Shown: piece after piece, positions 5,673-25,382 of the stretch
Position numbering within the stretch: the first letter of the stretch is position 1
How the letters are laid out: each line of letters starts with the position of its first letter
Assembly: GCA_002763085.1 (NCBI GenBank)
Contig: PFCY01000067.1
Location: 1 to 32,000, forward strand
DNA: 32,000 nt
Reading direction: 5' to 3'
Origin: Candidatus Pacearchaeota archaeon CG10_big_fil_rev_8_21_14_0_10_32_14
GTDB lineage: Archaea > Nanobdellota > Nanobdellia > Pacearchaeales > GW2011-AR1
Made by a program: the position numbers and the translations under genes
Notes under the pieces: model-generated
Databases searched by the model: none
Seen by the model: only the letters and a program-made list of their open reading frames with translations
Told to the model about the DNA's origin: nothing

Positions 5673-6167
5673 CTATTTAGTATAAATTCTCATATCAATT
5701 TTTAGGTCATCTTTCACATTCTTTGTCGGTCCCAAAAAACTCCTTGACGTATTTCCGTAACTGATATTGACTAATGTTTCTCCATCATCAATAATAGCTA
5801 GAGAATAACCTACCATTCCTCCCCTATCATCCGAACTCCAACTCGAGTTCATTATTCCAGTAAGTTCCCTCTCCAAAACCTCACAGCTATCTTTAGAATC
5901 ATAGCACTTCTTTCCTTGAGAACAGTCTTTTATTAAATGAACAATATTCCTATAATCATATTGCGACGTAAGTGCACATTTCGTCGTATACTGTTTCATG
6001 GCTGAAATAAAGCTATCCACCTCATAACTTTCAATCTCTTTCTCACCTTTTTTGTTTACCGAAAAAGCTAAGAAAACGAGTATTATTATCATGACTAGCA
6101 CAATAATTAAAACAAAACCCACCATTTCCTCCTGCCCCCTTCTTTTATAAACCCTCACTTTTTTCAT
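5673..6167 (-). CDS. Pilin-like protein with class-III-type signal peptide (164 aa)
   Basis: N-terminus KRRGQEEMVGFVLIIVLVMIIILVFLAF (basic residues, Gly, short polar stretch, then a hydrophobic helix). ATGA overlap with the upstream gene. Confidence 0.5.
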   Translation of the reverse strand: MKKVRVYKRRGQEEMVGFVLIIVLVMIIILVFLAFSVNKKGEKEIESYEVDSFISAMKQYTTKCALTSQYDYRNIVHLIKDCSQGKKCYDSKDSCEVLERELTGIMNSSWSSDDRGGMVGYSLAIIDDGETLVNISYGNTSRSFLGPTKNVKDDLKIDMRIYTK

Positions 6168-6730
6168 TTTGCTATCTCCTTATTTTCGTATCTTATTTTA
6201 ATTTTGGCAAGCTCACATACCTCAATATTTTTCGTCTCTTCCCTATTATAGATATCTTTTCTGCATAAAGCGACATAGTTTGTAACATAACTTTTTTTGT
6301 TGACTTTTTCATTATATATTGTTATATCTCTACAATTAGGATAATTCTGGAAAGAACATGTAACATTTGACAATAGTTTGGGATAAATTTTCTCTATTTG
6401 AATTTCTGCAACTCCCCAAAAATCACCATAATTCTTTGATTGATCTTTTAGGATCATTAATTTGTCAAAATCTACACAATCAACCTCTCCATCCCTAAAT
6501 GACCGCCCGCATGAAAATTCAGGAGAATTCGCAAGTTTTGAAATTAATTTTCTTGCATTTTGTTCTTCAAGTTCAGTTGCCTTAGCCCTAAGATTACTCA
6601 CTTGATAAACCATAAAGAACATTCCGATTAAAACAAAGAATATCATAATTGCAATTAACATGAACGCCATCTGTTGAATTTTTAATTGACCCAATCTTCT
6701 ACCAAAGACCGCATATTCCGCTATTTCCAT
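6164..6730 (-). CDS. Pilin-like protein with class-III-type signal peptide (188 aa)
   Basis: N-terminus GRRLGQLKIQQMAFMLIAIMIFFVLIGMFFMVY. The start overlaps the upstream gene by 32 nt. Confidence 0.45.
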   Translation of the reverse strand: MEIAEYAVFGRRLGQLKIQQMAFMLIAIMIFFVLIGMFFMVYQVSNLRAKATELEEQNARKLISKLANSPEFSCGRSFRDGEVDCVDFDKLMILKDQSKNYGDFWGVAEIQIEKIYPKLLSNVTCSFQNYPNCRDITIYNEKVNKKSYVTNYVALCRKDIYNREETKNIEVCELAKIKIRYENKEIAK

Positions 6731-7625
6731 TTTTTACCTCCAATTCCTTTACTTGCATTGACATTTGACTTAATGATCTTGAACTTGAATATGTAGAAAC
6801 AGAAATTCCAAGCGTTCCCAAATCCGGCGCCATATTATTCTGACATCCTCTAAGGTTCAAGAAAATAGCTTTTTTCTCATATATTGTATTAAGTTGCTCC
6901 ATTCTTTTCATAAGTCGCTTTATCTGACATTCATAATAATCTTTATCACTAAAAACAGCGCCATAAATCAAATTTCCATCAAAATACAACTCCTCTCCGT
7001 CTTTCACAACATATCCTTGATCATATTTAACAACGACATCACAATTTCTATCACTTGAAAAACAAATTCTTTTCGCTTTCGATGAACAATCAGGATTTAT
7101 CTTAAAATTATCTTGCGATAATCTCCGTAAATCACTTTTTATTTCTGAAGGTGGATCGACAAAACAAAATTCATCGTCTTCACTTGTAATTATTATCATA
7201 TCTGCAACTTTATATGGATAATCAAACGGCATAATAAATAAATAAAATTTCTTTCCTTCTATCTCTTTCTCTGAAAAAATATACTTATTCTGAAAACTCA
7301 CACTATCACTCTGTTCACTAAATTTTCCTAAAGACTCATGCGCAGTGCTTATCGATTGAGATCCAAAGTTTCCATAATCGTCACATTCGAAATCTAGCCT
7401 ACTTCTAGATGGTGTTTCTATAAAATTTGATGAACCACTCTCAATTCCAATCTCAAAAGGATTGAGTAATGTGCCAAGTTCTTTAGAAGAAGCAGTATCT
7501 ATTTCATTATTTTTAAGTCCTATAAATTTTTGAGCCATAAAAAAAGCAAATGCAAGTATTATGACCCCTGCCATTATCGCAAACATCCAACCAAAAGAAA
7601 TATCTAGATAACCTCTTTTCTCCAT
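6699..7625 (-). CDS. Pilin-like protein with class-III-type signal peptide (308 aa)
   Basis: N-terminus MEKRGYLDISFGWMFAIMAGVIILAFAFFMA. Only 1 nt separates it from the upstream stop. Confidence 0.45.
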   Translation of the reverse strand: MEKRGYLDISFGWMFAIMAGVIILAFAFFMAQKFIGLKNNEIDTASSKELGTLLNPFEIGIESGSSNFIETPSRSRLDFECDDYGNFGSQSISTAHESLGKFSEQSDSVSFQNKYIFSEKEIEGKKFYLFIMPFDYPYKVADMIIITSEDDEFCFVDPPSEIKSDLRRLSQDNFKINPDCSSKAKRICFSSDRNCDVVVKYDQGYVVKDGEELYFDGNLIYGAVFSDKDYYECQIKRLMKRMEQLNTIYEKKAIFLNLRGCQNNMAPDLGTLGISVSTYSSSRSLSQMSMQVKELEVKNGNSGICGLW

Positions 7626-7626
7626 T

Positions 7627-8178
7627 TTAGTTCGCCTTTTTTATGATTACGAGTGAACTTCCCTCAACTCTATTTAATGTCACACTTAATTTTCCATCGA
7701 CAGTATCAATGCAATAAGGATTTGTCGTTTTTGTAATTTCATCTAAGTTTATATTATCCATAGTCACAGAATCAACTCCCACACTTGATTTTTCTGGATA
7801 AAAATACATATTTTGTCCGTCTCCAGAATAGAACCCCATTGTCGAATATATTTCTGTACTGCCTCTTCCCCGAACACAACCCCTTCCAGAAGTGACCCCA
7901 CAATTATAATCAATAAAACAAATTTTATCGATTCCTTTCGGAAAAGAATATTCTCCTAAAGAATCGTAATTTCCCCCAGAATTTTTGTGCATATCATTAA
8001 TATCATCTTGAAAATCTTTAATTGAAGTATTCACTTTTATGAATTTTTGAGTATTAAGAACTTTTATTATTGCATAAAATGCCAGCGCCATAAAAATAAT
8101 TATTAACAGAATAGAAAAAATCATCCCAAAAGATAATTCCATCGCACCGATTTTCTTAATTCTTTTCCCTCTTTTCAT
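7627..8178 (-). CDS. Pilin-like protein with class-III-type signal peptide (183 aa)
   Basis: N-terminus KRIKKIGAMELSFGMIFSILLIIIFMALAFYAI. A GGAG lies 6 nt upstream of the ATG and is supplied by the last 37-bp repeat unit. Confidence 0.5.
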   Translation of the reverse strand: MKRGKRIKKIGAMELSFGMIFSILLIIIFMALAFYAIIKVLNTQKFIKVNTSIKDFQDDINDMHKNSGGNYDSLGEYSFPKGIDKICFIDYNCGVTSGRGCVRGRGSTEIYSTMGFYSGDGQNMYFYPEKSSVGVDSVTMDNINLDEITKTTNPYCIDTVDGKLSVTLNRVEGSSLVIIKKAN

Positions 8179-8355: not shown

Positions 8356-10674
8356 TTATGTAGCAGGAGCACTTACCGCATTAGCAAAAGGCCGAGCAAC
8401 AATACTGCACTGGTTAGGATTTGGCTGATTTCCAAACTCATCAGAACATTTTATATAATAATTTGAATTTATGTTCCAATCCGTCGAGTGCTGATTTTCG
8501 TCTGATGTAGAAGAAGTCATCTTTGTTCCATCAGCATACAAATAATTACAAGATTCCTTTCCATAAACACATTCGCTGACTTCATTTGTGATAACTCTTA
8601 ACTTATTATCTTCATCATGATAAATTCTCGTAACAATCGGCGCCTCATTATCTGACTCAACTCTAAACTGAACGGTTGTATTATCTGAATTTCCTCCTAA
8701 ATCTATGCACTTCAAGAAATATTTATAATTTCCTTCAGGTAAATGCAATTCCTGCTTATGTGCAACACTGTTGTAATTCAAATCAGAGAAAAATAATATG
8801 AACGAATCTGTTGCCCCCGTTGTTGAATAATAACAATTTGATTGCCCTTCATTAAATCCCGCGAAAGTTTCTGCTTCAAGATCGACTTTTATAACATTTG
8901 TAGAATCCCTTATTGTTTCATTTGGAGAAACGTCTGTAATCAACAATGGTTGCGAACCTTTAACAGTAAAAATATAACTCTGAAGATTTGGATTTCTGTC
9001 TGCTTCAGGCGCTTGTGGCTGATCAAGACATCTAAAGTAATATTTATTTTCTTCTCTATCTTTAAGTCCAGTCAGTGTCGTTGAACACTTGTAAAGCATC
9101 TGCGCATTCATCTCAAACACCGAGGAAGAACACTTCATTGTATTAGCCATTGTTTTATATTCTCTATCCACAAAATCCCACCTGCAAGTTGCTGGCTCGT
9201 TTACATAAACTTCTAAAGGAAGAGAAGATGTATTATATGCAACTGGCATTCCATTTATCAAATTAGTGCTAACAATTTGTGCAGGAGTTGTGTCAGGTCC
9301 TTTCTCAACACAGAATTGGAATACAAACTCTCCTTCATTTTGATTTCCGTTCGCATCTTGACACGAAACATAAAGTTCATAATCCGCGTCGTTATTTATT
9401 GTAATCTCTTCTCCATTACTGCTCGGTCCAGGCAAACTCAAAATTTGAGTATGATTTCTTAGAAGCAAACTATTTCCTCCAAAGAAGAATTTCATTTCAT
9501 CAAACGGTTTAACTTTTCCGTCGGAATTTCTTACATAATCAATCTTACATTTTGCCGGTTCGTTTGTTGTAACTCCAAACTTAAACGGAGTAAACGCTTT
9601 AACACAACCCGTTTTTGTCTCAGTTGATTTTATGAACGTTCCTCTATTCGGCGGATTCTTTGTGTTGTCTGGAGTATATTTATATCCAGGTGATAAAACG
9701 CTCGTCCAAGGTTCAACGATTGGTGGATCAACATCTTTTCTATTTATCCAAACACATTCTTGATTATCAGTTCCTGCGTTGACTAATTCACATCCTTGTC
9801 CAAGAGATTTACATTGATATTCGCTGCAAGGAAGTATGCTTTGTTTATTGCATTGCTCACAATATTGTCCACCCGTCGGCGCATCCCATGGTAAACATTC
9901 AAACCTAACCGTTTCAGATTTTTCTTTTTTATTCATAAGTAAAAATATTGCTATACCTACTGCTGCTCCTGCAGCTAGCCCCCATCCCATTCCTGCAATG
10001 TTACCAACGAATCTTCCAACTAGAACTCCCGCCCCAATTGCTGCCGTTGCTGCATTTCTTGTCGTTTCGCTGTCCGTTAAAAATCCAGCCGCAAAATAAG
10101 TTATACCTGCAGCTGTTAATCCCCAAGATGCACTCGAAACAAGATTATCCATCATCAAACCATTTGTCATTGAAGTTGCTCCAGGTTTAGGAATATATTC
10201 TTCCTTAACTGGATCCCATGTTGCTTCTTCTCCGAAACCATATATATTTCCAACAGAATTCCATAATCCTCCAGTTTCAGCCTTTGTGGGTTCTTGCTTA
10301 GTTATATCCTTTCCTCCATTGGTTTCATCATTCAATGAAAAATCACTAGGTGGCTCTTTAGATCCACCATATTTTATTTGCGGAGCAGGATATGGTGCGC
10401 TCGAAGGTAAACTGCTAATCTGAGTACCAACGAGTGGGCCTTCTATTCTTCCTGCAGGACTTGAAATTTCTGTACCAACGCCAGCAATCTTCCAACTTTC
10501 TGAACTCTGAAGAGGAATTGATGAAGGAATTCCATCTCGTGGATCTACATCTTGTCCACCAACAATACCAAAACTTAAAGAAATCAAATAAGCAATCGCA
10601 ACAGTCGCAACTATTAAAGTTATAATTTCACTCCCAGCGATTAATTTTAATCCTCTTTTATTTCTTTTTATCAT
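8356..10674 (-). CDS. G2b: large surface protein (772 aa). It has an N-terminal class-III-like signal/TM, a Gly/Ala-rich hydrophobic block, a Cys-knot-like motif and 4 Ig-like repeats. It is homologous to the C-terminal half of the 1339-aa ORF.
   Basis: KRGLKLIAGSEIITLIVATVAIAYL at the N-terminus. ECLPWDAPTGGQYCEQCN..CSEYQCKSLGQGCELVN matches KCLAWQPPVGGDKCGECN..CSKYRCESLGTACRIVN in G1. There are four units ending in YVSCQDANGN, YFRCLDQP, YFLKCIDLGGN and YIKCSDEFGN. Confidence 0.75.
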   Translation of the reverse strand: MIKRNKRGLKLIAGSEIITLIVATVAIAYLISLSFGIVGGQDVDPRDGIPSSIPLQSSESWKIAGVGTEISSPAGRIEGPLVGTQISSLPSSAPYPAPQIKYGGSKEPPSDFSLNDETNGGKDITKQEPTKAETGGLWNSVGNIYGFGEEATWDPVKEEYIPKPGATSMTNGLMMDNLVSSASWGLTAAGITYFAAGFLTDSETTRNAATAAIGAGVLVGRFVGNIAGMGWGLAAGAAVGIAIFLLMNKKEKSETVRFECLPWDAPTGGQYCEQCNKQSILPCSEYQCKSLGQGCELVNAGTDNQECVWINRKDVDPPIVEPWTSVLSPGYKYTPDNTKNPPNRGTFIKSTETKTGCVKAFTPFKFGVTTNEPAKCKIDYVRNSDGKVKPFDEMKFFFGGNSLLLRNHTQILSLPGPSSNGEEITINNDADYELYVSCQDANGNQNEGEFVFQFCVEKGPDTTPAQIVSTNLINGMPVAYNTSSLPLEVYVNEPATCRWDFVDREYKTMANTMKCSSSVFEMNAQMLYKCSTTLTGLKDREENKYYFRCLDQPQAPEADRNPNLQSYIFTVKGSQPLLITDVSPNETIRDSTNVIKVDLEAETFAGFNEGQSNCYYSTTGATDSFILFFSDLNYNSVAHKQELHLPEGNYKYFLKCIDLGGNSDNTTVQFRVESDNEAPIVTRIYHDEDNKLRVITNEVSECVYGKESCNYLYADGTKMTSSTSDENQHSTDWNINSNYYIKCSDEFGNQPNPNQCSIVARPFANAVSAPAT

Positions 10675-10677
10675 TTT
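10644..10677 (-). repeat. 34-bp direct repeat, copy 2 (covers the start codon and first 10 codons of G2b, and the HEPN stop)
   Basis: 33/34 identical to 11285..11318. The plus strand reads attttaatcctcttttatttc(t/g)ttttatcatttt. Confidence 0.9.
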
Positions 10678-11036
10678 AATTTTTTATTGTCTAATTTTTT
10701 TAATTCTTTTTTTAATTGTGGGATTTTATTTTGTATTACGTCCCAAAGAAGTATAGGATTTATTTTAAAGTAAGCATGACTAATAACATTTCTAAAATCA
10801 ATAAAACTTTTTATTTCTGTCTTATAATCTCCCCATAAATTAGGTGGAATTTTTTTTAATGATTCTCCGATTATTTGCATTCTCATACCATTAGAATCAA
10901 TCGCATCTTGATTTCTCGAAAACGAATTAATATCTGATCCTCTAACCGAATTCTCTATATTCTCAATTGCCCTTTCAATGTCTTTAAGCCACAAATTATA
11001 TTTTGACATATTCCACCTCTTTTTTAACATGTTCAA
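10671..11036 (-). CDS. hepT: HEPN-domain (DUF86) toxin of a HEPN/MNT toxin-antitoxin pair
   Basis: Rx4H motif RNVISH near the C-terminal third, with a size typical of DUF86. The more likely start is Met10 (MSKYNLW, nt 11009). The stop shares an ATGA overlap with the G2b start. Confidence 0.75.
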   Translation of the reverse strand: MNMLKKRWNMSKYNLWLKDIERAIENIENSVRGSDINSFSRNQDAIDSNGMRMQIIGESLKKIPPNLWGDYKTEIKSFIDFRNVISHAYFKINPILLWDVIQNKIPQLKKELKKLDNKKLK

Positions 11037-11286
11037 GCTCCGGTTTCAAATCACTTTCAATAACTAAATCAACTTTTCTTTTCGTAATTTTCTCAAGGAA
11101 GTAATGCGTTTTCATATAAGTATCAAAACTGATTTCATTAAATTCAACAAGTAAATCTACATCACTTTTTTCATTTTGCTTATTTTTTACAAATGAACCA
11201 AAAAGTCCTATTTTACTTATACCGATTTTTCTAAGAGTTTCCTTTTCTTTCTCTATACTTTTAATTATTTGAGTTTTTGTTATCAT
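10996..11286 (-). CDS. mntA: Minimal nucleotidyltransferase (MNT) antitoxin
   Basis: GS-x(n)-D-x-D signature: GLFGSFVKNKQNEKSDVDLLVEF. 96 aa. It overlaps the HEPN gene, which is the canonical MNT-then-HEPN order. Confidence 0.8.
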   Translation of the reverse strand: MITKTQIIKSIEKEKETLRKIGISKIGLFGSFVKNKQNEKSDVDLLVEFNEISFDTYMKTHYFLEKITKRKVDLVIESDLKPELEHVKKEVEYVKI

Positions 11287-11318
11287 TTTAATCCTCTTTT
11301 ATTTCGTTTTATCATTTT
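11285..11318 (-). repeat. 34-bp direct repeat, copy 1 (overlaps the G2a 3' end). It encodes a relic mini-ORF, MIKRNKRGLK-stop (11315..11283), duplicated from the G2b 5' end.
   Basis: 33/34 identical to 10644..10677. The relic ORF's TGA overlaps the MNT ATG (ATGA). Confidence 0.9.
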
Positions 11319-13038
11319 GATTTGCTTCATTTTCAGTTATTATTCTATATCCGGTATTATATCCTTGAACATTGATGAAGTTTTTATTATTTCCACAATC
11401 TCCTATCGCTGTACACATATTGTTTTGAGTTAATTCCCACGAACTTTCTAAACATTCACAATTCTCTACACATTTCCACTTTCCGCCAAGCGCTTTCTTT
11501 TCATATTTAACAACACATTCTTTATTCGCCATTGTGCAAAGTGATTGTGCATCTCCTTCCTCCCAAAAATTAAATCCAGGCGCAATTAATGGTAAACAAG
11601 CTCCAGTCTCACTTCCAACACTCTTATCTCTTAAATTCGCTTCATCAACAGGATCTCCAATTGCATTTCCAGTTATGCCACTTCCAGATGTTGTAGTTGT
11701 CGTCGTACTTGTGAATGGTTGAGAATTTGCCGTGCTCGGAAATGCTTCTCTAGCTTTTACATCCGACGCCGCTTCTTGTCTCGGTGCATTTATTTCTAAT
11801 CCAGGATACCATTTACAATCTCTTGCATCAATATTTTCACAGTCTAATTTATTGACTTGAGCAAAACAATCTTGCCATTTATTTGGCCTGCACGCCGCAA
11901 CTTTATAATCATTCACACTACTCTGAATACAAATTTCTTGTCTAAAATCTGAACAAGGCTCGACGGTAACTTCTCCATTATAACAAAGCATTCTAAAATG
12001 CCTGCTTCCCGGAAGACTTTTACCAATTCCTTTTGCATTATAACACCACGTCTCTCCATGCTGATAATGTTCATTTTCAAAATCACAAGACAAATCTCTA
12101 CAAACATAATCTCCATATTTCGGTCGAGACGAATCTTGACTTTGGCTGTATGCTTTACAAGTTGAACCTAAAAAATAATCACAATTTCCACACGACGCAC
12201 CCTGAACTCCAGTATTAGCAGAATTAGGATTACAACTTTCTTCTATTGGAACAACCTTACTCCAATAAAGAGTATCATCAGCACCACCATCAACTTTTGA
12301 AGCATCATAAATATTAGCTAAATTCCCACACGTATCAACAAAATAAACTTCATCTCTACCTTCAACACAAGTCGTTTTCTCACTCTTACCGCAAGATGTT
12401 CCTAAACTTTCGTCAGAACACAAAAACCCCGGATGAAAACTGACCGTTGAATTATCATCGATATTATCCGTTCCTTTAAGATCGTTGCATTCTTTTTGTG
12501 TCACAAATTTACATGTTATATCAAATTCTTTTTCATAAACGCAAGCGCCTTTTACATCTGAAGTAGCTGATGCAATACATTCGACTTCGTTAGTGATATC
12601 ACGTCTATAATTTGTTTCAAGTCCATAAAGTTTTGAAAGCCGTTTACATCTTGTCTGAGTAACAAATGCCGCCTGATCATTTAATAAACAACATCCTAAA
12701 TTACACTGAGGTGGAAGTCCATTCACCGCATCTTTCCAAACTCCTCCTTCTATATCACAAACTTTCTCAGGAGTATTTTCACTACATGTTCCTTCATTTG
12801 AATCAATACAATATCCCATTCTGCAATATGATGCAGCCGCACATGATGTTGGTGTACTTCTAAGTTCACCGCTCGTATCGCATTCAGATTGCGGCGCGTT
12901 TTGACACCATGCACCCGTCTTTGTTTTTTCACAACAATATGAAACTTCTTGACTTGATACAATAATTGACGAATATAAAAAAGCGATAGCTAAAATTAGA
13001 AATATTCCTAAAATAAAACCTCTTTTTCTCATTCCCAT
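11299..13038 (-). CDS. G2a: secreted Cys-rich protein (579 aa), homologous to residues ~104-606 of the 1339-aa ORF
   Basis: Signal/TM RKRGFILGIFLILAIAFLY and dozens of Cys. Shared blocks include TCVEGRDEVYFVDTCGNLANIYD (G1: TCVDGRDEIYFLDSCGNVGNIYD), PGSRHFRMLCYNGEVTVEPCSDFRQEICIQS (G1: PGSRHWKRICIDGKVKIEPCQDYRGQICVQS) and CTAIGDCG (G1: CMSIGDCG). Confidence 0.75.
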   Translation of the reverse strand: MGMRKRGFILGIFLILAIAFLYSSIIVSSQEVSYCCEKTKTGAWCQNAPQSECDTSGELRSTPTSCAAASYCRMGYCIDSNEGTCSENTPEKVCDIEGGVWKDAVNGLPPQCNLGCCLLNDQAAFVTQTRCKRLSKLYGLETNYRRDITNEVECIASATSDVKGACVYEKEFDITCKFVTQKECNDLKGTDNIDDNSTVSFHPGFLCSDESLGTSCGKSEKTTCVEGRDEVYFVDTCGNLANIYDASKVDGGADDTLYWSKVVPIEESCNPNSANTGVQGASCGNCDYFLGSTCKAYSQSQDSSRPKYGDYVCRDLSCDFENEHYQHGETWCYNAKGIGKSLPGSRHFRMLCYNGEVTVEPCSDFRQEICIQSSVNDYKVAACRPNKWQDCFAQVNKLDCENIDARDCKWYPGLEINAPRQEAASDVKAREAFPSTANSQPFTSTTTTTTSGSGITGNAIGDPVDEANLRDKSVGSETGACLPLIAPGFNFWEEGDAQSLCTMANKECVVKYEKKALGGKWKCVENCECLESSWELTQNNMCTAIGDCGNNKNFINVQGYNTGYRIITENEANQNDKTK

Positions 13039-13209: not shown

Positions 13210-13383
13210 TTATTTTATTAAAATTTTAATTATCCCATAAATGAGAATTATGATCGCGATTATCCCTAATGCCCATAAAATATAATCCATCCAATTTATT
13301 TTTTTCACACTCTTTTTCCTCATTTTTTCATTTCCTTTTTTTAATTTTTCTCCAGGGTCTTTTTCTAAAAGAGCCTTTTTCAT
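13210..13383 (-). CDS. Small single-pass membrane protein, 57 aa (MKKALLEKDPGEK...WMDYILWALGIIAIIILIYGIIKILIK)
   Basis: The track ORF begins at a TTG (13410) inside P2. The ATG at 13383 makes an ATGA overlap with the P2 stop. Clear C-terminal TM helix. Confidence 0.5.
   Translation of the reverse strand: MKKALLEKDPGEKLKKGNEKMRKKSVKKINWMDYILWALGIIAIIILIYGIIKILIK
13345..13383 (-). repeat. 39-bp perfect direct-repeat partner of 8254..8292
   Basis: tttttctccagggtctttttctaaaagagcctttttcat is identical at both loci, with the flanking bases differing on both sides. Confidence 0.9.
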
Positions 13384-14174
13384 GCTCCTATTCCATATCC
13401 AGGTGGCCAAGCAACACTTCTCGACGCAAACTGAAATTTACTTTCTGGATTGTTTCTATCTGTTAAAATATAAATCGTCGTCCCGTCGCCCTCTTTGTAT
13501 TTCTCCACCTTAAGGTCAGGATAGATATTCATGTATGTTGTCGTTTCCGCATCCCCATATTTTGTTTCATATTCGAGGATGCTTGAAGCAATACCTATAT
13601 GTTCATAAAGATTATTATTCAAAACTATCTCTAATCTATCGATCGTCGACGTCTCATCACCTTTTTTAATAGTGAGTTCTCTATTGAAAGTAACTAAAAT
13701 TCTTTGAGGCAATAGTTCTGCGCTCGTCACATTTTTTTTCACAATGTTTATTGAATAGCCCTCATTTTCATATTGTGCTATAAGATCATTAAAACAAGAA
13801 TTTTCTTCCTCTTTGATTCCTTTAACTATTTCATCAGCAACTTGTTTAAAGAGCAATGGTTGTTGCATCACACATGTTTTATAATATTCATTTGTATAAC
13901 ATAAATATTCAATCTTACTTCCTTTATACTCGTAAAATAACTCCGGCTCTAAATAACCTCCTTGATTAGAAAGATTAACGACGACTTCACTGACTTTGTC
14001 TTCCAAACAATTTTGAATAAAACTTTGTGGAGATACTTTATTTCCGCCAGTTATATCTTTTATATTCGGCCAAAACATATAGAATAAAATCGCAGCAAAA
14101 ACGACTATCACAGCTATTATGATAAATATTGTAACTTGTCCCTTACGATGCAATATTCCCTCTTTTCCAATCAT
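13380..14174 (-). CDS. P2: pilin-like protein with class-III-type signal peptide (264 aa), paralog of P1
   Basis: HRKGQVTIFIIIAVIVVFAAILFY. It aligns with the 260-aa ORF at CLED, QGGY, YLCY, Q(Q/E)PLL, CF, YPD..(V/I)EK, TIY, F.FA.R and the C-terminal PPG(Y)GIG. Confidence 0.6.
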   Translation of the reverse strand: MIGKEGILHRKGQVTIFIIIAVIVVFAAILFYMFWPNIKDITGGNKVSPQSFIQNCLEDKVSEVVVNLSNQGGYLEPELFYEYKGSKIEYLCYTNEYYKTCVMQQPLLFKQVADEIVKGIKEEENSCFNDLIAQYENEGYSINIVKKNVTSAELLPQRILVTFNRELTIKKGDETSTIDRLEIVLNNNLYEHIGIASSILEYETKYGDAETTTYMNIYPDLKVEKYKEGDGTTIYILTDRNNPESKFQFASRSVAWPPGYGIGA

Positions 14175-14211: not shown

Positions 14212-17200
14212 TTAGTTATATGATGCTTCCGGATAAACTTTTATAGCGCAATCGCCATTTATATTTCCGAAAACATCTTTGCATTTTATGAAGTAAGTAA
14301 TCCCGCTGTTCCACGGAGCGCTATGTTTTGTATCAAATACATTTGTCATCCTGTTCACAGTGTCGTCGCCTAAATTAAAATCACATCTATTATTTGTATA
14401 CGAACAAGCTGCTTCTTCATCTGTAATAATTTCTAAACCATTTCTATATAAAACTCTCACAACTTTCGGTGGCTCATCATCAATTCTCACACTAAAAGTC
14501 GTATTCGCATATGCAACTTCCCCCGCAGTATCTCTGCACTTAAAAAATAATTGATGATTTCCTTCTAAATATTGCAGTCCTCTTTGAGTATGGGTTGAAG
14601 CTAAAGTATTAAAGAACTCAATCATTCCAGTATCCACTCCGCTCTGACTAAAAGCGCAGGAAGATACTCCATTATTTCCACCACCAGTTGTCCTAAGTTC
14701 AAGATCAACCAATATTTGAGGAGTATAACCTGAAACAATTTCTCCTTTTGGTTTTACAACTTCAATTTGTAATAAATTCTCAACAATATTTAGAGTGTAA
14801 GAATATCCATCATTTGTATTTCTACTCTCCCCAGGTTTAGGAGTGTATTCCTCATAATCAAGCCAAGGTTGATCTCTGCATTTTATGAAATAAGAATTCT
14901 CTCCTCTCGTAAGTCCGTTTAAAGTAGTATAACAGCTATATCCCAAAGATGAAACTTCATCTACAAATTCAGAACAATTTAAACCAAAACTCATTTCATC
15001 ATAAGGAACATTTCCAACAGACGCAAGTTCGTATTTACATTCTGCTGGCTCATTCAAGTTAACGATTAAAGTTACATTTTGAGTGTTATGATTCAATTGC
15101 GCGCCATCTTGAGGATAAATAGAAGTGATTCTTGGCGGAGTTAAATCCGGACCTTCTTCGACGCAGAAATCAACTAAATAATCTCGAGTATTGATATTTC
15201 CTTGTATATCTTGACATTTTATATAAAACTTTGTCGCGCCAATTCTATCTCTTATATCTCCTTCAAGATCTCTTACATCAAGACTGCTCAAACTCGGCAT
15301 CTTTATATCCAGGGTATGATTAAATAAATATAATGTGGTGTCGATATCAGTAAACTCCATTTCTTCATATTGCGTTCCACTCACTGTCGAAAGTTTACAC
15401 TGCGCAACTTCATCAGTTGTAAGAGTGAATTCAACATTTGTAAATTCAGGTATACATGCACCATCGTCTCTTCTGACTTTAACATGTTCATTTTCAACTT
15501 CATCTTCAAATCTATATCCTTCATCAACTACTCCCGATTTTATGAATGGAGGAGAATGATCATTTGCATTTATCTCTTCACATCTTGCATCTTTAGTATC
15601 GTCATTTACAATCCTACACGCCGTTCCTAAACTTTCACATCTATATTTACTACAAGGATACATTTCAGAATCAACATTACATTCACCGCATTTATCACCG
15701 CCGACAGGAGGTTGCCACGCCAGACATTTAAATTCAACGGGGATTTGTTTCGTTTCACCTATTCCTATTATTCTCATGATTACTGCAACTATTACAGCGA
15801 CTACAACCGCCCATATTAATGCTGTCAATGCCACTCCAAGTCCTCCAGCTAAAAATCCTGCTCCACCACCAAATAAATTCGCTCCAATAAATCCTGATAT
15901 TCCTCCAGCAATCATTCCTCCAGCAACTACTGCCATCGCTGCTTGCCCTTCAAGTCCAAATATTTTTGCAACAAAAAATCCAACTGTCGCTCCAGTTCCT
16001 ATTCCACTAAATGCCGCCATAAATCCTCCAGCGCTAACTGCCGTCGCTGGTGTAGCTCCATTAATAGCGGTCATGCTATATGGAACAGGCGATCCCGCTG
16101 CTTGAAGACCCGGATTGAATGTCATTGCATATATCGGTGAACTAGCCGCAGCTCCAGCTCCAGCTGTTGAACTTCCCACTCCTAAAAATCCAATCACACT
16201 AGCAACAGTTCCAATACCTCCCGCATAAAGTCCAATTTGTCTAAGTAATGCTAAAGTTTTATTATTTTGATCAAGTTCATTTCCGTCAGAATCTCTAAGT
16301 GGAGTTCCAGTTGCATTTAGAATTTGATTTATATCTTTAGGTTTTGCATATAATCCTTCGATAACTTCGTCATATTCACTAATTTTATTTAAGTATTCTG
16401 AAGTCAGTCCAGGAGATCTTGATATACTATAACTTTGAGACAAATCGCCGACGTAATTTACACTCGCTCCGCAGTCTCCTATTGACATGCACAGATCATT
16501 CATCTTATCAGCAAAGCCAGCCTCAGTACATGCTTTGTTTGCTTTCCATACCCATCTTATTCTCGGACGACCATTCCTGAAATGAATTTCTTTGACTTTG
16601 ACTGCAATGCAAGTTCTGCTCGCAAGAGAGCATAAATCTTGAGATAAAGTTCTTTGATCTGGAGCTAAATCAAAACCACGAGGGTATTTCGGAACACACA
16701 TATCAAACTTGAATTTATCCGCAGCATCAACAGTTTTAACGAAACAATCTTCATTAGAATTACAATCTTGTATCATACTAGAAACTCCGCTAGCTCTAGA
16801 TTCGTCACTATCTTCAACTCCGTCCCTAGAATTATAACTCAAACATTCAATTGCCTCATTTAATTTACATGAAGATACAGAAAATTCATCTCCATTTTCG
16901 CTTTCTATTTCACTTTGTACACATATTTGACCACGATAGTCTTGACAAGGCTCGATTTTCACTTTTCCATCAATGCAAATTCTTTTCCAGTGCCTGCTTC
17001 CGGGTGTATCTCTTCCTTCTCCAATCGCTCCGTCATACACACACCAACTTTCTCCATTCTTTCTATATCTATTTCCAGTCTGTTCGCTTGAAGGACAATT
17101 CATGTTTAAACATTGTAATGTTCCCGACGAAGATTCACCACATCTACTTCCTAAAAATCTATTACAATTACCGCAAGAATTAGACTCGGCATTTCCATTT

Positions 17201-18231
17201 TCAGATTCACTTCCGCAAGTATCAACTTTACTTACAACTGTATTCCAATAAGTCGGATCATCTTTTCTTGCTTCATCATAAATGTTTCCAACATTTCCGC
17301 AACTGTCTAAAAAATAAATTTCATCTCTTCCATCAACACATGTTGTGTCAGTTGTTTTTTCACATATTGTATTTAATTCTTCATTTGAACAGAGTTTACC
17401 TTGATATGAGGTTCCGCCATCTAATACACATTGTCGCGCCGATATAAACCTACACCTGTTTCCCTCTTCTTCTTCGACGGTAAATACACATGCCCCCTTC
17501 TCTTCAGTTTCAGCTTGGGCTAAACATTCATATTCTGTTTTTATATCTGATCTAAACGGATCTCCATTATATCTATCTCCAGCCATATATCTGCATGCCT
17601 GTTCCGTCGTAAAGATCGCTTCATCTCCTAAAACACAACATCCTTTGACACACGCATTATCCGGAATTTGTAGATCTATACAGCTCTCATCTCCGGGATT
17701 ATCAGCCACAAATCTAACATTATCTCCATGACATTCTCCAAGAGTTGACATTGGACTGCAAGTTCCAAAGTGATCATCTATGCAACATCCAACTCTGCAT
17801 CTTGCATCATTTTCGCACAATGTCGGCGAAATTGGCGAACTCGAACTGCAAATTCTTGAAACCTCTGTGCTGAGTATGTCCTGACAAATCGCTCCACTGT
17901 TTGTTAACGCGCAGCAATTCATCATCGGCTCACCAGTCAATTCTATATCATTTGATGGAGGTGTCAACGTGTTTCCAGGAATTAAATTATCACTATCACT
18001 TTGTGCAGAAACACTTGGAATTAAATCAGCTTCATTTATTGCAAAATTAATTATTTTTGAGAAAATATTTTCTCCATCTGTTTCTATGATTATTCCATCA
18101 TTCAACACTGATTCAGATTCATGAATAGTATAAGCAAAAGCAAAAGTTGCAATTATTAAAATTGAAATTTCTAAAAATACTAAAAAGTGTTTATTATATC
18201 CCATTATCCAATTCCGGGAGGGATTCCACAT
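14212..18231 (-). CDS. G1: giant Cys-rich surface protein (1339 aa; 1330 aa if it starts at Met10, nt 18204). It is a fusion-equivalent of G2a + G2b.
   Basis: N-terminal TM FLVFLEISILIIATFAFAYTI. Cys-rich domain at residues ~104-606. Gly/Ala-rich hydrophobic block at ~664-822. Cys motif at 836-884. Four Ig-like repeats extend to the C-terminus. The Met10 ATG shares one base with the P1 stop (TAATG). Confidence 0.8.
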   Translation of the reverse strand: MWNPSRNWIMGYNKHFLVFLEISILIIATFAFAYTIHESESVLNDGIIIETDGENIFSKIINFAINEADLIPSVSAQSDSDNLIPGNTLTPPSNDIELTGEPMMNCCALTNSGAICQDILSTEVSRICSSSSPISPTLCENDARCRVGCCIDDHFGTCSPMSTLGECHGDNVRFVADNPGDESCIDLQIPDNACVKGCCVLGDEAIFTTEQACRYMAGDRYNGDPFRSDIKTEYECLAQAETEEKGACVFTVEEEEGNRCRFISARQCVLDGGTSYQGKLCSNEELNTICEKTTDTTCVDGRDEIYFLDSCGNVGNIYDEARKDDPTYWNTVVSKVDTCGSESENGNAESNSCGNCNRFLGSRCGESSSGTLQCLNMNCPSSEQTGNRYRKNGESWCVYDGAIGEGRDTPGSRHWKRICIDGKVKIEPCQDYRGQICVQSEIESENGDEFSVSSCKLNEAIECLSYNSRDGVEDSDESRASGVSSMIQDCNSNEDCFVKTVDAADKFKFDMCVPKYPRGFDLAPDQRTLSQDLCSLASRTCIAVKVKEIHFRNGRPRIRWVWKANKACTEAGFADKMNDLCMSIGDCGASVNYVGDLSQSYSISRSPGLTSEYLNKISEYDEVIEGLYAKPKDINQILNATGTPLRDSDGNELDQNNKTLALLRQIGLYAGGIGTVASVIGFLGVGSSTAGAGAAASSPIYAMTFNPGLQAAGSPVPYSMTAINGATPATAVSAGGFMAAFSGIGTGATVGFFVAKIFGLEGQAAMAVVAGGMIAGGISGFIGANLFGGGAGFLAGGLGVALTALIWAVVVAVIVAVIMRIIGIGETKQIPVEFKCLAWQPPVGGDKCGECNVDSEMYPCSKYRCESLGTACRIVNDDTKDARCEEINANDHSPPFIKSGVVDEGYRFEDEVENEHVKVRRDDGACIPEFTNVEFTLTTDEVAQCKLSTVSGTQYEEMEFTDIDTTLYLFNHTLDIKMPSLSSLDVRDLEGDIRDRIGATKFYIKCQDIQGNINTRDYLVDFCVEEGPDLTPPRITSIYPQDGAQLNHNTQNVTLIVNLNEPAECKYELASVGNVPYDEMSFGLNCSEFVDEVSSLGYSCYTTLNGLTRGENSYFIKCRDQPWLDYEEYTPKPGESRNTNDGYSYTLNIVENLLQIEVVKPKGEIVSGYTPQILVDLELRTTGGGNNGVSSCAFSQSGVDTGMIEFFNTLASTHTQRGLQYLEGNHQLFFKCRDTAGEVAYANTTFSVRIDDEPPKVVRVLYRNGLEIITDEEAACSYTNNRCDFNLGDDTVNRMTNVFDTKHSAPWNSGITYFIKCKDVFGNINGDCAIKVYPEASYN

Positions 18232-18986
18232 CCCCTTACCGCAAATACAAATTCTTCATTTGTCGTTTTATGTTTAATTGAATAAATTGTAGAACTATCC
18301 TCTGCTCTGAATTTTTCTATATCATAATCAGGATACAAAACCATATAGCCAGTCTGCTCAAAATTACAAAACCAAGATTCTTGACTGATAATTTCTTGAA
18401 CAACGCTTGAAAGATCATAAAATTTAGACATCTTCACGACCTTGATGTTCTCAAGTTTTCGTTTTTCTCCATCTTTACTTATGACGAATTCATTATTTAT
18501 TTTTAGAATTACCCTGTCAGGAACTAGTTCAACATCAAAACTCAAATCATCGACTGAAATGTCGGCTGTAAAATCTTCTTTCTCAAGCTCATCATTAAGT
18601 TTAAGAAAACAATTTTTCAATTCTTCTTCAATATCATCATGAATTTCATTCTGAAGATGTCTTAGTAAAAGTGGCTCTTGATTTATGCACCTCTGATAAT
18701 TGTTTATATTGTAGCATAAGTAGGCAACATCCTTTCCCCCATAATTTATTGTTAAATTGCTTTCAGCATATCCTCCTTGCGAAGAAATTTTGTTCAGCGA
18801 TGCCGTCAAATCATCTTCTAAACATAGATCAACATAAGTTTCTGGATCAAAATTTGTTTTCTTTGAAATTTGGGGTTTTATATCACCCCTTAAAAGTAAA
18901 AATAATAAAATCAAGACAACGATTAAAACTCCTATTATTACAAACATCGTTACCTGACTTCTTTTATTTTTAGCATAATATTTCAT
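18204..18986 (-). CDS. P1: pilin-like protein with class-III-type signal peptide (260 aa), paralog of P2
   Basis: KNKRSQVTMFVIIGVLIVVLILLFLLL. Full-length similarity to the 264-aa ORF. The start forms an ATGA overlap with the RHH gene's stop. Confidence 0.6.
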   Translation of the reverse strand: MKYYAKNKRSQVTMFVIIGVLIVVLILLFLLLRGDIKPQISKKTNFDPETYVDLCLEDDLTASLNKISSQGGYAESNLTINYGGKDVAYLCYNINNYQRCINQEPLLLRHLQNEIHDDIEEELKNCFLKLNDELEKEDFTADISVDDLSFDVELVPDRVILKINNEFVISKDGEKRKLENIKVVKMSKFYDLSSVVQEIISQESWFCNFEQTGYMVLYPDYDIEKFRAEDSSTIYSIKHKTTNEEFVFAVRGCGIPPGIG

Positions 18987-23246: not shown

Positions 23247-25382
23247 ATGAAAAAGAGTGTGTCAATGTTTGTAATTCTTACAGTCATATTTTTATTTATA
23301 ATCTCTGCCAATTTAGTTCTAGCTCAAACTACGACGTCAGGCAACAATACGCCAGAGGCAAAAGTTTCAAAAGCATACACTTGTCTTGAAAATAAAGTCA
23401 AAGGAAAATGCGATACCTTGACGCTGGATCAACAAATTTTTTCAATACTTGCTTTAAAATACGATTCAAACATCCGTTCAGAATGTAAAATGTCATTAGT
23501 TGCCCAAGCAGACCTTTCAGCAAATAATAAACCTAAATGCTGGCCAAAAGATAGATGTGGAATTAAAACAACCGCCCAATCGATTCTCGCATTAAGTAGA
23601 ATAAATGAAAACACGGATGACGCAGAGAGTTGGCTCATCTCTCAAAACACAACTCCAACAAATCTAAATTGGTATTTGCAAATAGAAAGCAATGAAGAGA
23701 CAACTTGTTCAATTTCATACGGTCCAACTGGTCCAAATTACAATAACCAATTAATAATTGGAACAAATAAAAAAATCTCCGGCGATGCTGGTAGCTGTCT
23801 ACCGATTGATACTGCTGGCGGAAGTTACTGGTTAAGAATAAATTCAGGTTCAGATTGTTACACTCGAACTTACACAATAAAATGTAACAAAGGATTTTTA
23901 ACAACTCTTTTATATAAGAGAAGCGGTTCTTCTACAGTCTATGTTTCAGATATTGTAAATTCAGCATCTGCCGACGGAGAAACCTCTGAAAAAATAAATT
24001 CTGTTTGTTTTGGTAAAAACGGAATTTGTGATTATGAAGGAAGTTTATGGGCTTCAATTACTCTTGACGCTTTAGGTTACGACGTAACCTCTTATTTACC
24101 TTATTTAACTTCTAATTCAGTAGATTATCCTAAGTTGCTCCCAGATTCATTCTTATACCTTCTAAAAGATTATCCTGACTTTTATGGCAACCTAATCAAT
24201 TTACAAAAGCAAAGTCTTTGGGAAGTTTCGGGAGATAAGTTTTATGATACGGCTTTAGCGTTGCTTGCATTAAACACTTTAGACATTTCTCAAGTTACCG
24301 AAGCTAAAACAAAACTTCTAACTCTTCAAGACGCCGAAGGATGTTGGCAGGGAAATATTCGAAACACTGCATTTATTTTGTTTTCAGCTTGGCCACGACA
24401 ATCGACTATAATTGATCCAGTTGTAGACACACCCTGCGATGATGGAGACAATCCCGCTGGATTCTGTAGATCAAGAGACAGTTGTTTAGAAGATGGGGGA
24501 GAAGTTTTAGAAAATTTTGATTGTTCAGGAATTTCAAAATGTTGCAGTGTCGAAGAGATCTTAGCCACTTGTGATGAAGAAGGTGGAAAGATTTGTAGTT
24601 CATCAGAAAGATGTACTGGGCAAGAAACAGATCAAGTTACCGGAGTTCAATTAGGAGAATCATGTTGTTTGCTTGGAGATTGTGTACCAAACATTCCAGA
24701 TACTGAAACAGATTGTGAAAGATTTAACGTCGGTGGTGTTTGTAAATCTGAATGTGGTATTGACGAAGATTCAACTAGCGATGATTGCGGTTCCGATATT
24801 TCATCAATATGTTGTATTCCTCTTGAAGGATGCACAAACGACAATCAATGTCAAACTGGCCAGGTTTGTAAAGCAGGAGAATGTGTAACTAAGAAAAAAT
24901 CTAGTTGGTTTATTTGGCTTTTAATAATTTTAATAATTCTTGTTATACTTGCGATTATATTTAGAACTAGAGTTAAAATGTTTTTACTTAGATTTAGAAA
25001 AGGAAAAGGAGATTATAAACCTCAAGGAGGACTTCCGCCTCGAGGACTTCCGCCTCGACCAGGTATGCCACCTCAAGGCATGCCACCACAAAATAGATTT
25101 GCACAAGGCTCACCTTTAGCAAACAGAGGAATGCCTCAAAGAAGTCCACCACCTCAAATCAGACCAATGTTTGGAGGCATGACACAAAGAATGTTTCCAC
25201 CTCGACCACAATCACCTCCACAAAGACAAAGTCCCCCTACTCCTCAAAGACAATTACCTCCCTCCCCTCAAAAATCAATAACTACTAAAATAACAACTAC
25301 AAAAACTACTTCAAAGCCTGCTCCAAAGAAAGATAAAGACTACGAAGACGTAATGGAAAAGTTGAAGAAGATTAGCAAATGA
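23247..25382 (+). CDS. Type-I membrane surface protein (711 aa): signal peptide, alpha/alpha-toroid (prenyltransferase/terpenoid-cyclase-like) repeats, Cys-rich modules, a TM helix, and a ~140-aa Pro/Gln-rich cytoplasmic tail
   Basis: Signal MFVILTVIFLFIISANLVLA. Repeats TTAQSILALSRIN, YDTALALLALNTL and QDAEGCWQGNIRNTAFILFSAW. Three ~40-aa CC-containing Cys modules. TM WFIWLLIILIILVILAIIF. Tail GGLPPRGLPPRPGMPPQGMPPQ... Confidence 0.6.
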   Translation: MKKSVSMFVILTVIFLFIISANLVLAQTTTSGNNTPEAKVSKAYTCLENKVKGKCDTLTLDQQIFSILALKYDSNIRSECKMSLVAQADLSANNKPKCWPKDRCGIKTTAQSILALSRINENTDDAESWLISQNTTPTNLNWYLQIESNEETTCSISYGPTGPNYNNQLIIGTNKKISGDAGSCLPIDTAGGSYWLRINSGSDCYTRTYTIKCNKGFLTTLLYKRSGSSTVYVSDIVNSASADGETSEKINSVCFGKNGICDYEGSLWASITLDALGYDVTSYLPYLTSNSVDYPKLLPDSFLYLLKDYPDFYGNLINLQKQSLWEVSGDKFYDTALALLALNTLDISQVTEAKTKLLTLQDAEGCWQGNIRNTAFILFSAWPRQSTIIDPVVDTPCDDGDNPAGFCRSRDSCLEDGGEVLENFDCSGISKCCSVEEILATCDEEGGKICSSSERCTGQETDQVTGVQLGESCCLLGDCVPNIPDTETDCERFNVGGVCKSECGIDEDSTSDDCGSDISSICCIPLEGCTNDNQCQTGQVCKAGECVTKKKSSWFIWLLIILIILVILAIIFRTRVKMFLLRFRKGKGDYKPQGGLPPRGLPPRPGMPPQGMPPQNRFAQGSPLANRGMPQRSPPPQIRPMFGGMTQRMFPPRPQSPPQRQSPPTPQRQLPPSPQKSITTKITTTKTTSKPAPKKDKDYEDVMEKLKKISK

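Follow-up and report, generated by a model that had tools for sequence, protein, structure and literature searches.

Transmembrane glycine zippers, in which GxxxGxxxG spacing drives helix packing, are exemplified by VacA and MscL, and the anchor of the SlyB family is a two-helix hairpin. In the cited parts of two reports, SlyB figures as a protein with a glycine zipper 2TM domain and YfgH as an outer-membrane lipoprotein of the glycine-zipper type (bioRxiv 10.64898/2026.06.08.730324, 10.64898/2025.12.22.696046). Exported glycine zippers are required, according to the cited passages on Tde1 and TelE, for translocation of a type VI secretion system (T6SS) effector and for the activity of a toxin of the T7SS (type VII secretion system) (PMC10240207, PMC10434224). 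For archaea, the cited portions outline immunoglobulin (Ig)-like S-layer-associated membrane proteins with two or four transmembrane segments (Makarova 2015, PMC5898192), and a secreted family specific to the DPANN archaea that adjoins S-layer-like genes (PMC6393860). Here we analyzed a 32,000-nt stretch of contig PFCY01000067.1 from a Candidatus Pacearchaeota archaeon (the whole stretch is called the window), and within it a Gly/Ala-rich hydrophobic block in the middle of G1, a 1339-aa protein. The window is archaeal, has a GC content of ∼33%, and codes for PCNA, a fused PriS/PriL primase and a class II aminoacyl-tRNA synthetase.

The block is family-specific and conserved within its family, and its helices have membrane length. 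We consider it moderately probable that it is a glycine-zipper hairpin anchor, composed of helix H4 and either H3 or H2, with extra exported hydrophobic helices, placed in the middle of a two-lobed DPANN surface protein. According to this model, the N-terminal helix would export the Cys-rich N lobe, and the chain would next pass an exported hydrophobic helix (H1) and then a floppy low-complexity loop (loop 1). It would dip into the cell's own membrane and return as a tight helical hairpin made of H4 and one glycine-zipper helix, most likely H3 in G1 and perhaps H2 in many proteins of the type of its paralog G2b, and beyond the hairpin, outside the cell, Ig-like domains would form the stalk with which it continues. 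Through their small-xxx-small faces, H2, H3 and H4 would be able to pack tightly against one another, perhaps also against copies in an oligomer, and the zipper helix that does not span would presumably lie in or on the bilayer beside the hairpin. The function would be to anchor or organise a complex at the cell surface together with the prepilin-like proteins encoded next to it, near an S-layer gene. The parts of G1 and of the second paralog (G2a and G2b) are as follows.

14212..18231, minus strand: G1, 1339 aa, from the open reading frame (ORF) and its translation
18121..18189, minus strand: N-terminal hydrophobic helix (TM0), ∼residues 15-37, 19-residue Kyte-Doolittle value (KD19) 2.31, FAFxY motif
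16471..17916, minus strand: N lobe, residues 106-587, 43 Cys, homologous to G2a by alignment
16270..16470, minus strand: polar linker, residues 588-654, with conserved VNYxGxG...PVxGQxAxP motifs in the alignment consensus
16183..16269, minus strand: H1, residues 655-683, weakly hydrophobic; predicted by AlphaFold2 (AF2) as 655-671 and 676-683 with a predicted local distance difference test score (pLDDT) <62; Hessa sum +4.4
16042..16182, minus strand: loop 1, residues 684-730, G/A/S/T/P-rich, pLDDT <50 (predicted disordered)
15961..16041, minus strand: H2, residues 731-757, glycine-zipper helix in AF2, pLDDT means 69-75 over most of it, Hessa sum +2.6
15946..15960, minus strand: tight turn FGL(E/Q)G(Q/D), residues 758-762, conservation of G759 and G762 87-92%
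15871..15945, minus strand: H3, residues 763-787, glycine-zipper helix from AF2 and the Gly columns, Hessa sum +1.9
15847..15870, minus strand: loop 2, residues 788-795, Gly-rich uncharged turn, median 6 residues, pLDDT <50
15766..15846, minus strand: H4, residues 796-822, KD19 3.05, Hessa sum -2.7, small residues 808/812/816
15727..15765, minus strand: junction GIG-(K/E)TK-x-V-x-V-x-F, residues 823-835, with G823 and G825 98% conserved
14215..15726, minus strand: C lobe, residues 836-1339, AF2 pLDDT mostly >90, predicted 7-Cys knot followed by four Cys-bearing Ig-like beta-sandwiches
11299..13038, minus strand: G2a, 579 aa, 43 Cys, signal peptide and N lobe only
8356..10674, minus strand: G2b, 772 aa, N-terminal helix, P/S-rich linker, shorter block and C lobe
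9934..10164, minus strand: hydrophobic block of G2b, residues 171-247, equivalent to H2-H3-H4 by alignment with G1

The block resembles transmembrane glycine zippers in its conserved i,i+4 small residues on one face of uncharged membrane-length helices. It differs from them in having no sequence or profile relation, and in that the G1 helices lie between two large ectodomains and are lost or replaced in some homologs. When read as a hairpin, the G1 block shares with the SlyB and YfgH lipoproteins a two-helix glycine-zipper hairpin as membrane anchor. Those proteins, however, are bacterial, outer-membrane, lipid-anchored and small, whereas the G1 block is archaeal, would reside in the cytoplasmic membrane, has three to four helices and finds no Pfam match. 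By analogy with Tde1 and TelE, G1 may be a secreted protein with an uncharged Gly-zipper segment able to enter a membrane, but their zippers are short motifs of small toxins served by dedicated secretion systems, and for G1 no homology and no toxin domain were found. In the literature searched on DPANN Cys-rich, pilin, fusion or glycine-zipper proteins no description of the G1/G2b family was found.

From the N to the C terminus, G1 is laid out as a hydrophobic helix, the Cys-rich N lobe, the Gly/Ala block and the Ig-like C lobe. An earlier note on this DNA had described a charge-poor Gly/Ala block at nt 15766-16242, Cys-dense flanks on both of its sides and a shorter equivalent in G2b, and each of these descriptions was borne out. 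The coordinates are right and correspond to G1 residues 664-822, the text quoted in that note spanning residues 668-826 (a trivial offset). Gly and Ala account for 20.8% and 20.1% of the block (41% together), compared with 9.0% and 6.6% of the entire G1. Only 4 of the 159 block residues are charged (R664, K756, E761 and R819; binomial P(≤4 charged) = 1e-12), and the block contains no Cys, with 43 Cys on its N-terminal side (residues 106-587) and 21 on its C-terminal side (residues 836-1339). The G2b equivalent was confirmed at residues 171-247 (nt 9934-10164), and G2b is 32% identical to G1 residues 759-1337.

The database copy of G1 (P0001, 1330 aa) begins at Met10, its numbering being 9 lower, and given this copy the true G1 start may lie 27 nt downstream of the annotated one. 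The annotated start overlaps the end of the upstream gene p260 by 28 nt (18204-18231). An antisense ORF at 15776-16105 on the plus strand (109 aa, Pro/Ala/Thr-rich) was rejected as a gene; it is the shadow of the GGN/GCN codons opposite the block.

AF2 was run on G1 residues 590-1339 with 90 sequences and returned a mean pLDDT of 79.5. Three membrane-length helices, H2, H3 and H4, were predicted, separated by turns of 5 and 8 residues, with ten-residue pLDDT block means mostly of 67-81 and down to 50-51 at the helix ends. Hydrophobicity was then expressed as Hessa (biological-scale) sums, which are approximate: the medians were -2.7 for H4, +1.9 for H3, +2.6 for H2 and +4.4 for H1, compared with -0.6 to -7.8 for control membrane helices of the same window. 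The H4 sum was ≤ +1.0 in 98% of the homologs. By these sums only H4 among the four helices is strongly hydrophobic and a clear predicted membrane span, and from the hydrophobic moment none of the helices is markedly amphipathic. H1 occupies the position of the N-terminal helix of G2b, and K756 sits close to the C-terminal end of H2. The polar linker upstream (residues 588-654) carries on average 5.8 K/R and 8.5 D/E. Loop 1 varies in length, with many alignment gaps and a median of 28 residues, and is far longer in some homologs, the entire middle region reaching up to 330 residues in locus L054; the length of loop 2 likewise varies greatly among homologs.

The earlier note had also described GxxxG spacing as dense in the block. 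When raw motif counts were compared with composition-preserving shuffles, GxxxG occurred 7 times in the G1 block against 6.5 in the shuffles (P = 0.48), so that as a raw count this density is what composition alone predicts. Small-xxx-small motifs (42 vs. 34, P = 0.013) and three-member zippers (25 vs. 15.6, P = 0.009) modestly exceeded the shuffles. Conservation of the Gly periodicity across homologs had been named beforehand as a test, and here the prediction held. In an alignment of 89 G1-type sequences (G1 and 88 homologs, 30-56% identity) the columns of the helical part with at least 50% Gly were 743, 747, 751, 759, 762, 772, 776 and 780, and these eight formed four i,i+4 pairs compared with 0.93 expected (P = 0.004). 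The series are G743-G747-G751-A755-G759 (H2, with G759 in the turn) and G772-G776-G780 in H3. When both paralog families were aligned jointly, at least 90% of the sequences had Gly at 772 and 776, and the small residues of H4 fell at 808/812/816. Gly conservation in H1 (G667, G671 and G674) was 80-98%. The block therefore shows what defines a transmembrane glycine-zipper motif, namely three or more small residues at i,i+4 spacing, conserved, in an uncharged membrane-length helix. As judged from these alignments, the real zipper signal is the conservation of the Gly register over ∼90 homologs and the paralog G2b rather than the raw count.

No profile match to the block sequences was found among the glycine-zipper Pfam families (Gly-zipper_2TM/Rick_17kDa_Anti, Gly-zipper_Omp, _OmpA, _YMGG and Transgly_assoc). 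With four block sequences searched against Pfam at E values up to 10, nothing was returned for the G1 block and one other, and the only matches of the remaining two were to Pam17 (0.015), UQCC3 (3.3) and a holin family (8.4). Searches of Pfam, NCBIfam and PDB sequences with G1, G2a, G2b and the block likewise gave nothing significant. A profile built from the block only matched 321 clusters among 1.84 billion representatives; the block was placed in them as the G1-/G2b-type architecture predicts, and the C-lobe start motif was present in 114 of the 138 newly listed matches. This makes the module specific to the family.

For the N lobe a model was made of its split paralog G2a (AF2 model m9acb096dc2a2), with 259 of 579 residues at pLDDT ≥90 and ten-residue block means mostly ≥80 over residues 30-400. 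Against PDB and the viral library BFVD, Foldseek returned no match to this model at E ≤0.001, the top matches being fibronectin type I and von Willebrand factor (vWF) D'D3 fragments at E ∼0.2-0.3, and the N lobe appears to have a new disulfide-rich fold. The C lobe gave 468 Foldseek matches at E ≤0.001, all of them Ig, fibronectin type III (FN3) or cadherin chains, including ectodomains, the grappling-hook protein GhpA and an S-layer protein. Its tandem beta-sandwiches are those expected of Ig-like extracellular chains (bacterial Ig, Big_13-type), and precomputed PF19077 matches exist in G2b homologs. Its Cys residues come in repeated xCK[YL] ... [YF]IKCxD motifs, which we read as the strand B/F pairs of the Ig fold. 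The Cys count of the C lobe was 21 in 90 of 99 homologs, and that of the N lobe ran 43, 45, 47..., in steps of two, and was odd in 79 of 99. An odd count in each lobe and an even total are thus the usual state, which would fit disulfide-bonded domains and one possible inter-lobe bond. Cys makes up 4.2% of the C lobe compared with 0.4-1.6% of the window's cytoplasmic proteins.

The N-terminal helix may be either a signal peptide or a retained anchor. A Q/E residue stands at its start in all of the motif-matched N-termini, 102/102 G1-type and 86/86 G2b-type, from 120 sequences of each type; G2b-type N-termini read K-[KR]-G-x-L-A-x-S-Q/E-I. Covariation between this Q/E and K/R at the end of H2 was not significant (P ∼0.36, with crude position anchoring).

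The side of the membrane on which the lobes reside was deduced from natural variants. Three homologs (P0094, P0112 and P0116) combine a classic signal peptide with both lobes and contain no further hydrophobic 19-mer; polar sequence replaces the block in them, and the conserved GIG-x-TK junction is still found at its end. Of the two whose Cys were counted, P0094 (1279 aa, on 27 contigs) has lobes with 45 and 25 Cys, and P0112 lobes with 45 and 21 Cys, the complete Cys set in both cases. Because these proteins have a signal peptide, both lobes and no other hydrophobic stretch, their entire mature chain is exported. P0104 has in place of the block two strongly hydrophobic helices, FNIAVAVVTILLVLEIIFF-TYP-FSIPVIIVYIILMYLF-GIGK, an even count in a Gly-poor hairpin. 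The C-terminal flank of H4, GIGETKQIPVEF, has a net charge of 0, whereas the stop-transfer helices of two clear type I proteins of the window are followed by RTRVK...RFRKGKG or KKYKKAKKK; the H4 flank does not look like a predicted cytoplasmic one. In G2b-type proteins the linker is placed outside because LysM domains or Cys-rich inserts of ∼1000 aa occur there.

The second paralog is split into G2a and G2b in most loci, and G2a is, by alignment, the split-off partner of G2b. In three species it is a single fused gene of 1301-1385 aa (L043 10670-14662; L054 11680-15837; L064 12800-16705). Since the second copy occurs in both fused and split forms, the two lobes are taken to act together. In the fused L054 protein an internal segment, GLTALVLAFANAGSWLVGMGVVSGQD, matches the N-terminal helix of split G2b and stands at the position of H1, which looks like gene fission or fusion at a hydrophobic helix.

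The natural variants, the fused and split forms, the Cys residues, the linker inserts and the H4 flank place both lobes on the same, outer side, and the block crosses the membrane an even number of times. The modelled Ig-like fold of the C lobe and its matches to ectodomains and an S-layer protein likewise indicate that this lobe is outside the cell. This agrees with the logic of the earlier note that two outside flanks require an even number of crossings or a re-entrant segment, the support coming from P0094/P0112/P0116, P0104, the Ig-like C lobe and the Cys counts. That note had also named an odd-pass prediction with a cytoplasmic C-terminal half as a refuting pattern. The predicted structure does show three helices, an odd number from which one would naively place the C lobe in the cytoplasm, but this count is overridden because the natural variants keep both lobes outside. 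Because the sequence that follows the equivalent segment is outside in G2b, H1 and loop 1 would also be outside in G1, with H1 exported rather than membrane-spanning. This leaves two crossings among H2-H4, of which H4 is certainly one. From the P0104 hairpin and the hydrophobicity ranking, the pair most likely to cross in G1-type proteins is H3 and H4, with loop 2 presumably cytoplasmic; many G2b-type proteins carry lysines in H3, and there H2 may be the crossing partner of H4.

Several observations weigh against this assignment: (i) the choice of crossing helices rests on crude hydrophobicity sums with approximate Hessa values, and in many G2b-type proteins neither H2 nor H3 resembles an autonomous membrane span; (ii) AF2 predicts three helices, an odd count, and all three carry conserved small-residue stripes, as if all were membrane-packed; (iii) positive-inside K/R counts over all loops in both paralog families gave no clear bias, and the conserved KTK that follows H4, taken alone, would point to a cytoplasmic flank; (iv) 25 of 99 homologs carry a C-x5-7-C motif where H4 begins and, if it forms a disulfide, loop 2 would be outside; and (v) that the membrane is the cell's own is itself something we infer.

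The 25 homologs with this motif have exactly two Cys in an otherwise Cys-free middle (e.g. P0007, P0008, P0022 and P0025), and in the inspected sequences the motif surrounds a GG or GP turn directly before the H4 core; its possible roles are a disulfide, metal binding or lipid modification. Block replacements took three forms overall, namely polar sequence, amphipathic K-rich helices or a plain two-helix hairpin (P0094/L033 7955-11794, P0112, P0116, P0070 and P0104), and in L033 and L036 such a copy is an extra tandem paralog with its own p260-like gene. Short "G2b" homologs that start at H3/H4 were dropped as evidence that H4 acts as a signal anchor; P0149 was an artefact of a scaffold N gap.

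G1 had 384 database homologs at E ≤1e-3 and G2b had 267, all named "hypothetical" and assigned to Nanoarchaeota, Pacearchaeota or Woesearchaeota. Among contigs taken at one genome per species, at least 510 out of the 600 candidate stretches code for a relative. As judged from these matches, the family is confined to Woese-/Pacearchaeota-type DPANN genomes. Synteny was compared over 82 loci, and the conserved order was p432, p711 and primase (reverse), then PCNA, p260, G1, p264, G2a, (MNT/HepT) and G2b, followed by p183, p308, p188 and p164, an HVO_A0114-type helix-turn-helix (HTH) gene (reverse), the S-layer-like protein, p196, p227 and the exosortase-family protein. The corresponding genes of the window are as follows.

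25445-26743, plus strand: p432, with p711 just upstream of primase in most related loci
23247-25382, plus strand: p711
18204..18986, minus strand: p260, prepilin-like, upstream of G1 and placed by synteny, K-R-[GS]-Q-V-T-I-F and a hydrophobic stretch
13380..14174, minus strand: p264, paralog of p260, upstream of G2a, with a prepilin-like N-terminus
10671..11286, minus strand: HepT/MNT toxin-antitoxin pair between G2a and G2b (Pfam HepT-like, 1.6e-16)
5673..8178, minus strand: four consecutive prepilin-like genes of 183, 308, 188 and 164 aa with [KR]x[GAS]-Q/A and a hydrophobic helix, order kept (individual genes, by N-terminal motif, 7627-8178, 6699-7625, 6164-6730 and 5673-6167)
5322-5672, plus strand: HVO_A0114-type winged helix-turn-helix (wHTH) protein
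2498-4993, minus strand: S-layer-like protein, 831 aa
1041-2371, minus strand: p227 and p196
513-1049, plus strand: exosortase/archaeosortase-family membrane protein

All six small families and their orthologs carry [KR]-x-[GAS]-Q/A followed by ∼20 hydrophobic residues, the pattern of archaeal class III (prepilin) signal peptides, to which the K-[KR]-G of G2b-type N-termini also conforms. In the cited parts of the work on operons of minor pilins and a large adhesin (PilY1/modular pilins; PMC9934059; bioRxiv 10.64898/2026.04.22.720090), small prepilin-type N-termini similarly stand beside very large surface proteins, and the likeness extends to the K-[KR]-G and hydrophobic helix of the G2b-type N-termini. 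Unlike in those operons, no prepilin peptidase, assembly ATPase or platform protein was present within 10 kb in the 82 loci, and no protein of the window had a pilin match in Pfam or NCBIfam. Unlike in pilins, a central membrane hairpin in G1 would prevent extraction into a fibre. The six small proteins may be a pseudopilus-like set without nearby assembly machinery. They have no Pfam, NCBIfam or PDB relative, and a p260/p264 profile gave only chance-level matches to PDB sequences. Each has 4-8 Cys, and their order around G1 and G2 is fixed in dozens of species. For p264 there were ∼2000 homologs, named hypothetical among the matches listed (best 120 of 1999). An identification of p260/p264 with the DPANN "NEQ255 secreted protein" cluster (PMC6393860) was rejected as unproven, that name being absent from the best 120 of 1999 matches.

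The cited part of the arCOG01314-associated putative secretion system (PMC5898192) offers a likeness in combining few membrane helices with extracellular Ig-like domains near S-layer genes. Of its neighbourhood (DUF4350, MoxR ATPase and von Willebrand factor A, vWA) nothing was found in the window or in the related loci, and G1/G2b had no Pfam match; identity of the G1 family with either of the Makarova families (PMC5898192, PMC6393860) could not be demonstrated. The S-layer-like protein has a weak S_layer_C match and no PGF-CTERM was seen in it; p227 and p196 are small and secreted or anchored, and this downstream gene order is the same in many species. Upstream, p711 combines a signal peptide with a 34-Cys ectodomain, a single membrane helix and a tail that is basic and Pro-rich; p432 likewise has a signal peptide, together with an ectodomain rich in sequons, a membrane helix and a KK-rich tail. 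The two proteins may be part of the same envelope supercluster. MNT/HepT cassettes occur in the cluster at varying sites (before G2a, between G2a and G2b, or after G2b; L010, L011, L012, L016, L017, L032 and L048), at times two per locus. The cited part of a survey reports MNT-HEPN genes in housekeeping contexts of DPANN genomes (Makarova 2019, PMC6393860).

The earlier note had offered anchoring, pore formation and insertion into a partner membrane as possible roles of the block. Anchoring gained positive support, and the other two did not, with no Pfam match and no fusogen fold. The composition of the block resembles that of viral fusion peptides, and this general likeness is among the points that favour an exported membrane-active element, with H1 and H2 or the entire block entering the host membrane (fusion, permeabilisation or bridging) in DPANN-host association. 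H1, loop 1 and probably one zipper helix would be exported yet are uncharged and Gly/Ala-rich, which is unusual for an extracellular segment and makes H1 and H2, as predicted, compatible with a fusion peptide or loop; moreover, the family is restricted to presumed episymbiotic DPANN lineages, where it lies among surface and prepilin-like genes. There are precedents in the exported glycine zippers of T6SS/T7SS effectors, as far as the cited passages go (PMC10240207, PMC10434224). We nevertheless regard this explanation as unlikely: the N lobe has no fold likeness to viral proteins or to any PDB entry at Foldseek E ≤0.001, the C lobe is a generic Ig chain, and the ectodomain fold of a fusogen (class I-III or fusexin) was found neither in the N lobe (PDB, BFVD) nor in the C lobe. 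Neither heptad repeats nor a cleavage site were found, H4, as a strong membrane helix of the ordinary kind, would retain the protein in its own membrane, the block has been lost entirely by some family members, and the locus is a vertically conserved core beside PCNA and primase rather than a variable host-range island. A specific version is improbable, in which H1, H2 and the floppy loop between them would serve as a membrane-insertion device that can be deployed: H3/H4 would hold it in the membrane of the symbiont, a pseudopilus-like stalk of the six prepilin-like neighbours would present it, and it would enter the host membrane. If true, it would create an intercellular bridge or pore supplying Woese-/Pacearchaeota with lipids and metabolites, and would be an archaeal cell-cell fusogen or porator of a previously unseen fold class.

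An odd-pass anchor, with either three crossings (H2, H3 and H4) or one (H4) and with the Ig-like C half in the cytoplasm, draws on the three membrane-length helices of AF2, on the K-rich residues after H4, on the possible external disulfide at the start of H4 in 25/99 homologs, and on the many G2b-type proteins where only the N-terminal helix and H4 are clearly hydrophobic. We rate it as improbable as the insertion device, because the helix-less and two-helix hairpin variants have both lobes behind one signal peptide, the 21 near-invariant Cys in motifs read as B/F pairs imply disulfides, the C-lobe matches are all extracellular chains, its Cys content exceeds that of the window's cytoplasmic proteins, and the fused and split forms imply cooperating lobes. 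An oligomeric channel in the cell's own membrane, with the zipper helices of several copies lining a pore and the lobes as a gated outside vestibule, would make use of the conserved register in H2, H3 and H4, of a semi-conserved Lys in H2 and the Lys in G2b-type H3, which could face the lumen, and of two paralogs per genome that could hetero-oligomerise. It seems to us quite improbable, however, as there is no homology to any channel or glycine-zipper family, loop lengths are highly variable, and the membrane part can be dispensed with or exchanged for a Gly-poor hairpin while the rest is kept, as expected of an anchor and not of a pore. That the block is no membrane element at all, but a flexible low-complexity Gly/Ala spacer between domains, would agree with the low-complexity, length-variable and predicted disordered loops 1 and 2 and with a raw GxxxG count at compositional expectation. 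It is very improbable in view of H2, H3 and H4, which are conserved by column, predicted helical, of membrane length and essentially uncharged, and of H4, whose hydrophobicity equals that of bona fide membrane helices in the same genome.

Woese- and Pacearchaeota are abundant, uncultivated and of small genome, and are presumed to attach to hosts and feed on them. The analysis defines a large, lineage-specific and near-universal pair of surface proteins with an unusual two-lobed architecture, in a fixed cluster with six prepilin-like proteins, a transcription regulator, an S-layer gene and an archaeosortase-like gene. The glycine-zipper block would set the geometry of this pair, with the lobes outside and tethered mid-chain, which yields concrete targets. 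Should the exported zipper helices turn out to be membrane-active, the missing machinery of host contact in these archaea would have a candidate in this family; should they not, the block is a membrane anchor of the ordinary kind, though a well-documented one.

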